From: a phage
DNA: 64,000 nt
Assembly: GCA_018296565.1 (NCBI GenBank)
Contig: GCA_018296565.1_3935.1
Strand: one strand, 5' to 3'
Shown: positions 32,022 to 33,909 of the stretch, one piece after another
How the letters are laid out: each line of letters opens with the position of its first letter
Position numbering within the stretch: position 1 is the stretch's first letter
Program-made: the position numbers and the translations under genes
The notes under the pieces: model-generated
Databases searched by the model: none
What the model was told of the DNA's origin: nothing
What the model saw: only the letters and a program-made list of their open reading frames with translations

Positions 32022-32130
32022 AATGACCTCAAAGTTATATTAAATTTTGTATTACGTTGAGTATAAAAATAAGCTATAACACCTGACTTGTCAACAGATT
32101 TTATAGCTTATTTGGCAGATTTTTTATAAG

Positions 32131-32433
32131 GCTACTGCCATCCTTCCATACCAAACCGTTCCCAACCCAACCCTACAGCACCGAGCCAAACCCTACCGAA
32201 CCGTGCCTAACCTGACCTAACCGTACCTTACCAAACATCGCTTAAAAACCCTCTTAGAAGACGCTTAAGTGATGTAATCGAATTTTAATGTAGCTCCGAT
32301 TAACTACCCATACCTGACCTAACCTGACCTAACCGAACCGAACCAAACCCTACCCCGCCTCACTGTACCTCATTAAAAGACCCTGTTTAAAGACCTTTTA
32401 AAAAGGAGCCTCCGAAGAGGCTACCTAGTCAAC
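32131..32433. repeat. C/A-rich G-poor intergenic repeat region, copy 1
   Basis: About 300 bp noncoding, plus strand nearly devoid of G, short repeats (cctgacctaacc x2, ccgaaccgaacc). Contains 33-nt module ttaaaaaccctcttagaagacgcttaagtgatg, hairpin aatcg/cgatt, and module cattaaaagaccctgtttaaagaccttttaaaaagg. Confidence 0.6.
32395..32422 (-). terminator. Rho-independent terminator (minus strand) after the 32434-33464 cassette
   Basis: Minus strand reads hairpin agcctc-ttcg-gaggct followed by TTTTT. Confidence 0.5.
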
Positions 32434-32874
32434 TTAGAAAGGTTTTCTACGTTGCTTGTTAATGTTAGCTTTCATAGCAGCTAAATGGTTTTGCTGTTCA
32501 ATCAGTCGTGAGCGTTCTTGATGGCTAAGTGCCATAGTGTTCACATTCTCAATCGCTTGAGTGGCTTGCTTTAAAGCTCGACCAATCTTACCAGACATTT
32601 TACGTTTTGCAATAGTTGCTTGATGCTTAGGTTCAACCACACGATAACCAACACCCATTGAAGCAACCAGATAAATCTTCTCTTCTTTAAGAAGCTTCTC
32701 AATAAACTTCTCAAGTCGGTTTAGACGTGTAAGCGCATAAGCCTTCATTTCATCTTCGTACTTAACAATGTCACCTTGATAAGTTGGCTTCACAATACCT
32801 AAGAAGGTATCCATCTCAGAGTGTGATACAGTGTCACCGTAACTAAACTTTGCTGCTAATGCTTTTGTATTCAT
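32434..32874 (-). CDS. Hypothetical protein (cassette gene 2)
   Basis: 146 aa ORF, ATG start, helical and basic C-terminus. Confidence 0.5.
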   Translation of the reverse strand: MNTKALAAKFSYGDTVSHSEMDTFLGIVKPTYQGDIVKYEDEMKAYALTRLNRLEKFIEKLLKEEKIYLVASMGVGYRVVEPKHQATIAKRKMSGKIGRALKQATQAIENVNTMALSHQERSRLIEQQNHLAAMKANINKQRRKPF

Positions 32875-32876
32875 AA

Positions 32877-33464
32877 TTAAACGTTACCTTCTGAAATAAC
32901 TTCTACAGAAAAACGACCAAAGCGTGGACGCCAATCACCTACACCACAAAGGTTACCAGCATTTTCCAGAACCATCAAGAGTTCCTCTTTGGTGATTTGC
33001 TCTTCATCGAACATCAAACCGAACTCTACAGACCAGTCACGGAAGATTGGACGGTAGCTCATAACTCGTGCTGTGCCAATCTTAACAGACTTAGCATAGA
33101 TAAAGTCTGGATTCTTAGCAAGTTCTTGTGGGTTTGCTGGACAGTTCTTGATAGTCATTGGGAAGACTACATCTGTCAGCATAATGGCTCGGTCAATTAC
33201 CTTACCAAGTTTGTTGAGTTTCGCACCAGACTTGATGCAAGCCTCAATCATCTCACCGTTCATAACAAAACCTAGCTGCTCATCGTAGTAACAAGAAGTT
33301 ACCAGTTGGCTTTCTGCTAAGAGCGCATAGTCTTCGTCGGTCTTTTTACGTTTACTGGACAGAGACTTGTGATATTTTGTCAGAGGGTTTAATGGGTCTG
33401 ACAGTGTATCAGCGTGGCTCAGGAAAGGACGAGTACCAGTGATTTTGATATTTAACAGTTTCAT
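32877..33464 (-). CDS. Hypothetical protein (cassette gene 1)
   Basis: Track ORF starts at a GTG at 33479; ATG at 33464 follows a ggagc RBS. No recognisable motif. Confidence 0.5.
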
Positions 33465-33480
33465 AGCATTTAGCTCCACA

Positions 33481-33900
33481 CTTTAGTTGATTGTTAAGTT
33501 GTTTGTAAAGAACCCTCAACAGAAGACTCTTTAGAAACTTGGTAGATTTTTAATGTGGCTACTACCATCCACCCATACCAGACCTAACTACACCTCACCC
33601 CACCTGACCCATACCTCGCATTACCATACCAAACCAGACCCTACCTCATTAAAAAACCCTCTTAAAGACCTTTTAAAAAGGTAAGTCTCATTTTAATGTA
33701 GCTGAGACTAACTACCCGCACTTTACCGCACCGGACCTTACCGGACCGCACATCACCGCACTAAACCAGACATCACATTACCTGACCACACCAAACCAAA
33801 CATCACATTACTTAAAAACCCTCTTAGAAGACTCTTAAGTGATGCTGGTGAGTACCCGTTGGTTTATGCTGCTCAGTATACTCACCAAATTTTCTATGTC
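33481..33900. repeat. C/A-rich G-poor intergenic repeat region, copy 2
   Basis: About 420 bp noncoding, same modules as copy 1 in different order (modules near 33647-33681 and 33811-33844), hairpin gtctc/gagac with identical loop, degenerate extra motif copy near 33506-33536. Confidence 0.6.
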
Positions 33901-33909
33901 AACAACTTT

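Follow-up and report, generated by a model that had tools for sequence, protein, structure and literature searches.

A probable type II VIPR locus of the SUSP1 clade in a Felix O1-like phage, with three of its four predicted guides matching a satellite element of E. coli

VIPR (Viral Interference Programmable Repeat) is a minimal, phage-borne, RNA-guided DNA-binding system which two 2026 preprints propose to be older than CRISPR. Its type example is phage SUSP1 (bioRxiv 10.64898/2026.04.26.720920). According to that preprint, the system comprises Vipr, an ancestral RAMP protein of ~20 kDa, together with the accessory gene vap and vrRNAs in which 9-16 YNNGG repeats precede an invariant tail; in the SUSP1 clade this tail carries a pseudoknot. 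The NN dinucleotides pair with double-stranded DNA, every third base of the target being skipped. The SUSP1 vrRNAs, about 100 nt long, were shown by small-RNA sequencing, Vipr pull-down and GFP repression; co-expression of vap1 raised protection, and the guides of the SUSP1 clade aim at a satellite with phage-like tape-measure and baseplate proteins (10.64898/2026.04.26.720920). In the cryo-EM work, one Vipr protomer per repeat gives a right-handed filament in which each GGY is flipped into protein pockets and held base by base, with NN exposed, and a gapped RNA-DNA hybrid lies within a triplex; the upstream unit of SUSP1 has 12 repeats (10.64898/2026.04.26.720927). The accessible parts of the VIPR preprints make no mention of vrRNA biogenesis or of orphan units.

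The locus described here lies in a 64-kb stretch of phage DNA ('the window') and consists of two genes bracketed by two noncoding spacers that are filled with 5-nt repeats. Three other systems resemble it in part. Class 1 CRISPR-Cas also builds filaments (Cas7/Csm3/Cmr4) on a guide, the crRNA, but the window lacks a CRISPR array, further cas genes and an adaptation module; its period is 5 nt with three bases hidden, compared to 6 nt with one flipped, and its guide is non-contiguous and phage-encoded, unlike that of Class 1 systems. The TRAP site of the Bacillus trp leader has 11 (G/U)AG triplets with 2-3-nt spacers. As in the window, a conserved triplet and a two-base variable spacer are repeated, with one oligomer subunit per repeat; however, TRAP spacers carry no information and the output is attenuation, whereas the two-base spacers of the window repeats are the guide, and the protein folds are unrelated. 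PeSLs are promoter-stem-loop repeats that flank mobile cassettes in T4-type phages. There too, short homologous noncoding modules bracket a cassette that is present or absent among close relatives, but PeSLs are promoters and hairpins without a periodic array, while the window units are read as guide-RNA genes.

The locus belongs, very probably, to type II VIPR and there to the SUSP1 clade; it is therefore a member of a system already described and not a new one. The phage that carries it is Felix O1-like (Felixounavirus), and positions 31000-35000 are matched by 260 phage records at 80-99% identity. Synteny is that of SUSP1: ligase, units, vipr, vap, units. The two loci share the position after the ligase, the GGY/NN arrays, the leader types, three of four tail types, and a target class, namely an E. 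coli satellite with tape-measure and baseplate genes. They differ in the host phage (a Suspvirus in the case of SUSP1), in guide sequences, in the number of units upstream and downstream of the genes (2/2 in the window, compared to 1/3 in SUSP1, a distribution that agrees with its published small-RNA sequencing), in a tail type of the window that is absent from SUSP1 (stem TAATCG/CGATTA), and in array length, two arrays of the window having 19 units against the 9-16 reported for VIPR.

Both spacers are real noncoding intervals, as the preliminary description had it: spacer 1 (32022-32433) is downstream of vap1 and spacer 2 (33465-33909) upstream of vipr. The longest open reading frames within them have 36 and 43 codons, the former extending into the 5' end of vipr, which agrees with the earlier statement that none reaches 60 aa. 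The plus strand is G-poor (13% G in 32100-32440 and 12% in 33465-33915, with a GC skew reaching -0.54), although at these values 'nearly devoid of G' was slightly too strong a wording. The genes of the region are on the minus strand, and this had rightly been taken for the functional strand: the GGY/NN arrays are read there.

Short repeats had been reported, and they are present, but the strict 5-nt rule that governs them, NNACC on the plus strand and GGYNN on the minus strand, had been overlooked. In-register ACC occurs at 7-10 of 12 positions per 60-nt segment, compared to a mean of 0.63 over the window. Only four places in the 64 kb attain such values, so that nothing comparable exists elsewhere in the window, as had been claimed; the description of two repeat regions, on the other hand, has to be replaced by one of four tandem units, two per spacer. 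A 33-nt module said to be common to both regions indeed occurs twice (32241-32274 and 33811-33844) and corresponds to one of two leader types, type 1, of the units. The core AAACCCTCTTARARGAC, announced as present at least four times, has four matches in the region at up to three mismatches, and six in the whole window compared to 0.9 expected; it is the stretch common to the type 1 and type 2 leaders.

Runs such as tagggttgggttggg on the G/T-rich strand had been cited as possible G-quadruplexes, and a (GGNNN)n sequence could form two-tetrad quadruplexes that act as a regulatory or pausing signal through intrinsic structure. However, the GG runs are only two long, and the pyrimidine that follows is as conserved as GG itself; one array even keeps GT where GG is lost. 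Moreover, the cryo-EM study places GGY in protein pockets (10.64898/2026.04.26.720927), and a structural signal would leave the matches of NN to satellite genes (see below) unexplained. Such a role for the repeats is thus extremely unlikely.

On the VIPR reading, the minus strand of the spacers holds four vrRNA genes; of the options offered earlier, 'noncoding RNA genes' proved to be the correct one. Each unit consists of a 34-35-nt leader, then 13-19 YNNGG pentamers in which GGY is kept and NN is free, then a 32-33-nt tail, and neighbours within each spacer abut. Unit U4 (33684-33844; guide a, 19 units) has a type 1 leader at 33811-33844, its array at 33716-33810 and a tail at 33684-33715 with stem AGTCTC/GAGACT; the array is degenerate, with TG or AG instead of GG in 7 of the 19 units. 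Unit U3 (33540-33683; guide b, 15 units) has a type 2 leader at 33649-33683, its array at 33573-33648 and a tail at 33540-33572 with stem TGGTAG/CTACCA and pseudoknot GUGG:CCAC; one of its repeats is 6 nt long (UAUGGG), owing to an extra G at 33608. Downstream of the genes, unit U2 (32275-32406; guide c, 13 units) combines a type 2 leader (32373-32406), an array (32308-32372) and a tail (32275-32307) with stem TAATCG/CGATTA and pseudoknot GUAG:CUAC, and unit U1 (32113-32274; guide d, 19 units) a type 1 leader (32241-32274), an array (32146-32240) and a tail (32113-32145) with stem TGGCAG/CTGCCA and pseudoknot AAGG:CCUU. Flanking YNNGG arrays with conserved GGY and hypervariable NN, as expected for VIPR, are therefore present as four arrays of 13-19 units. 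Among phages in which Vipr is 98-100% identical, the arrays are only 60-80% identical, and all but one of the ~40 relatives' units fall into two length classes, 5 nt apart in step.

The tails fold into a 6-bp hairpin with a conserved loop of 14-16 nt, four bases of which pair with the four that immediately precede the stem on its 5' side. Four tail classes, differing in stem and pseudoknot, were found in the window together with 14 related loci. For the hairpin and pseudoknot, 97% of cells were paired and 8 of 10 pairs had changed on both sides, compared to 25-46% in slid controls. The invariant, structured 3' tail with a pseudoknot that marks the SUSP1 clade of type II VIPR is thus present here. 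UAUGG is the final pentamer before the tail in three units. This last unit mismatches the targets of U1 and U4 and probably belongs to the tail; at the U3 site in one satellite (L126) it does match. Exchange of tails and leaders between units is seen across phages. The conserved 34-nt leaders, already noticed in the preliminary description, would have a part in the start or the processing of transcripts and may be the signals that define the vrRNA 5' ends.

A sigma-70-type promoter-like site (TTGACA-16-TATACT, 33875-33902, minus strand, 11 of 12 consensus matches, predicted from sequence) stands immediately past the ligase stop and is directed into U4. It is the only strong promoter-like site in the locus, and its homologue stands before vrRNA1 in SUSP1. 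Before vipr, a leader-like remnant (33505-33539) and a weak promoter-like site (TTTACA-18-TAAAGT, 33480-33509), both on the minus strand, have putative functions. An intrinsic-terminator-like hairpin with a T run (AGCCTC-TTCG-GAGGCT, 32400-32422, minus strand) lies directly 3' of vap1; it is the sole such site in 31500-34500, and its T run overlaps the U2 leader. The promoter-like site TTGACA-17-TATTTT (32066-32094, minus strand), which carries a promoter annotation in phage ASO1B, belongs to the next gene (31638-32021) and is the downstream border of the locus, outside the system. Two inverted repeats were also observed. One, of 8 bp (GGTGAGTA / TACTCACC, 33847-33854 and 33879-33886), spans the -10 of the promoter-like site before U4; the other, of 19 nt and 89% complementary (32067-32113), straddles the one that belongs to the next gene. 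Each may serve as an operator.

The two genes between the spacers, vipr (32877-33464, minus strand) and vap1 (32434-32874, minus strand, directly downstream), encode a 195-aa RAMP-fold protein, by homology the vrRNA-binding filament subunit, and a 146-aa accessory protein. Vipr is identical to its SUSP1 counterpart at 192 of 195 positions (98%), and Vap1 to the SUSP1 neighbour of vipr at 145 of 146 (99%). [quoted passage not shown] The adjacent vap gene completes a two-gene operon; in SUSP1, Vap1 is labelled "predicted DNA-binding". Pfam and PADLOC gave nothing significant for either protein (for vap1, one sub-threshold Pfam match, E 0.023, and no PADLOC match). The earlier idea that the repeats belong with the two-gene cassette is borne out; the HTH protein at 31132-31431, put forward as a possible binder, is not needed, the partner being the 195-aa RAMP protein within the cassette. 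In a separate record, GU169904.1 ('Staphylococcus phage SA1', 147 kb), a vipr 100% identical to that of the window is found at 91679-92263. The host is an odd one, which suggests that this record contains Felix O1-like sequence.

By homology to SUSP1, the window phage would express the four RNAs: transcription of the units from the minus strand would yield vrRNAs of about 100 nt, to which Vipr is predicted to bind, one protomer per pentamer, as a right-handed filament with GGY in the pockets and NN exposed. The exposed NN would pair with double-stranded DNA in the pattern NN-x-NN-x, every third base being skipped, and the gapped RNA-DNA hybrid within a triplex would block transcription. During infection, the vrRNAs would by the same homology silence a satellite.

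Candidate targets were sought in satellites found via the baseplate-hub gene of the window (18314-19111), which was queried against 5426 complete E. coli genomes. A matching 'phage baseplate protein' gene is present in 474 of them, with up to 93.6% identity over 544 nt (window 18335-18878). In strain JNEC-KY173, it lies within an 11-kb element inserted in a DUF72 gene; strain E24377A is another carrier of the satellite. The cargo of the satellite comprises a methyltransferase, an HTH gene, small ORFs, tape-measure and baseplate genes that are related to the window phage's own, and a serine recombinase. The extent of satellite L126 is 5170-16366. Insertion sites vary: the DUF72 gene, between yciI and tonB, mdtG, and near ymdF.

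The NN strings of the four arrays were then scanned, under skip rules 0-3, against 12 E. coli satellite or satellite-remnant loci. In all 11 intact satellites, guide d (U1, units 4/5-17) had its match at the 3' end of a 291-nt ORF, with 21-26 of 26-28 NN bases. Guide b (U3) matched a 291-297-nt ORF after the HTH gene, again in 11 of 11 (17/20 to 26/30). For guide a (U4), units 9-17 matched the tape-measure gene at 18/18 in five satellites, and units 0-8 an ORF of ~705 nt in two satellites, at 18/18 and 16/16. In satellite L126, the scores at the 1-nt skip were 25/26 for guide d, 18/18 for guide a and 24/30 for guide b. Predicted sites include L126 9160-9197, 8362-8405 and 12560-12585, and L130 11247-11272. 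For a, b and d alike, 200 shuffles of unit order never gave a score as high as the one observed. The 1-nt skip alone stands out, skip rules 0, 2 and 3 having given only background (z at most 5.8). At three of the four sites (d, b and a2), the base passed over is the third of a codon, the wobble position; at the a1 site of guide a, the phase departs from the annotated ORF. Targets in a mobile element, read with a 1-nt skip, were therefore found for three of the four units (U1, U3 and U4). Judged from these matches, three of the four guides are predicted to point at an 11-kb satellite element in E. coli chromosomes.

Guide c (U2) gave only background across the 12 satellite or satellite-remnant loci and the window, and no guide rose above background in the phage's own 64 kb. 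Exact gapped-pattern scans of IMG/VR with guides d (U1) and c (U2) returned 0 matches each. A strict search of nine satellite loci for GGYNN arrays of their own found none.

Where 19-unit arrays match their targets, they do so with only the 3' 9-13 units, or as two separate halves. U4 gives the impression of a fusion, on one tail, of two guides of 9 units each that are directed against different satellite genes. The target of U3 stays in 3-nt register across the 6-nt unit at 33608, and this suggests that an extra G in the hidden block is tolerated.

These matches bear on the other roles that had been envisaged for the repeats. The preliminary description had offered an iteron-type origin or a binding array for a phage regulator, and both fail because the variable bases of the 5-nt GGY/NN code match foreign genes. 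A replication origin, in which an iteron array or an R-loop-forming G-rich transcript primes DNA synthesis, would suit the position of the locus between the ligase and other DNA-metabolism genes and the strong promoter-like site that feeds a G-rich, C-poor transcript. However, the repeat is 5 nt long with two free positions, not an iteron of 17-22 bp, the only longer shared modules being the leaders and tails of the units, and a specific gapped rule brings the free positions into agreement with foreign genes. In addition, about half of the related records lack the protein genes, Si3 has a single unit in its spacer, and the same type of array accompanies Vipr genes in unrelated viral contigs (see below). 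We therefore consider an origin exceedingly improbable. A TRAP-like RNA-binding ring, Rho rut sites on the C-rich strand, a primase recognition-site array, an R-loop origin, two-tetrad G-quadruplexes, an sRNA sponge and an anti-Shine-Dalgarno mimic were all dropped once the NN bases had matched foreign genes. A CRISPR-Cas locus was also considered: the repeat search found no identical repeats of 23-47 nt, there is one RAMP gene only, and Rfam at the gathering threshold returned nothing but tRNAs, with no CRISPR repeat family among them.

The vipr gene is found in 132 of ~260 related phage records, about half being without the protein genes. In many close relatives that lack vipr and vap1 (Salmonella phage Si3, locus L004; also L035 and L039), one or two vrRNA-like units still stand between the gene-93 homologue and the ligase. 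Si3 (L004, 2400-2545) has a single chimeric unit, with a U4-type leader and a U1-type tail and no cassette; its GG periodicity is degraded (7 of 11 units), and its guide gave only background against nine satellites. This unit may have been left behind as an orphan when the cassette was lost, or it may serve as a guide in trans.

Such relatives raise the question of whether the repeats serve mainly for recombination, by which the cassette would be moved or deleted in the manner of PeSLs, an RNA role being secondary or lost in this phage. Exactly one chimeric unit without a cassette is what recombination between units predicts, and the presence of vipr in only part of the related records is in keeping with it. 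Against this, the units of the window have kept their GGY frame, their tails and their near-perfect matches to targets, which requires selection on RNA function. We regard this explanation as very unlikely; in what we take to be a VIPR locus, recombination would rather be a by-product of the homology between units. That the locus displays the evolution of VIPR guides and cassettes, by modular recombining units of which Si3 would be a unit-to-unit deletion product, is a tentative and rather doubtful proposal.

The association of such arrays with Vipr extends beyond this phage group. A pattern scan of viral contigs for 7x(ACCNN) yielded at least 120 loci, many with 12-48 pentamers and variable NN on contigs unrelated to the window phage. 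Among 120 scan loci, all picked by DNA pattern alone, a Vipr-family ORF (HMM) was present at 41 of 68 with variable NN, compared to 1 of 40 simple repeats (Fisher p = 1.7e-10).

As the window shows, the 5-nt GGY/NN period is in itself enough to recognise VIPR loci in raw sequence, and the published rule can predict targets for a phage beyond SUSP1. In annotation, the spacers deserve entries for four vrRNA genes, and the names vipr and vap1 should replace 'hypothetical' for the two genes; this also holds for the 118 phage records in which Vipr is at least 90% identical, both genes being unnamed in all the records listed. What goes beyond the accessible parts of the preprints is the 19-unit arrays with the fused guides of U4, the 6-nt unit of U3, the last pentamer before the tail, the leaders, the presence of vipr in only part of the related records, and the orphan unit of Si3. 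The fused guide, the targetless guide, the orphan units and the conserved leaders offer material for the study of guide turnover and vrRNA biogenesis.

Several minor observations complete the picture. The Felix O1 genome paper is silent on these repeats, and the record of phage wV8 marks only a 58-nt direct repeat, 'DR_4'. GGYNN arrays of 13-25 units, ten or more of them, are scattered over two A+T-rich contigs, IMGVR_UViG_3300029288_001872 (189.6 kb) and IMGVR_UViG_3300014204_000113 (188 kb). One locus of the 188-kb contig (L060) contains a pair of Vipr-family ORFs; in the examined parts of the 189.6-kb contig, none was found. Every array of the latter contig whose flanks were inspected closely precedes a gene start and has a covarying hairpin and a T run behind it. 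Finally, in the window itself, 20 plus-strand tRNA genes are clustered at 2-4389, as is usual for Felix O1-like phages.
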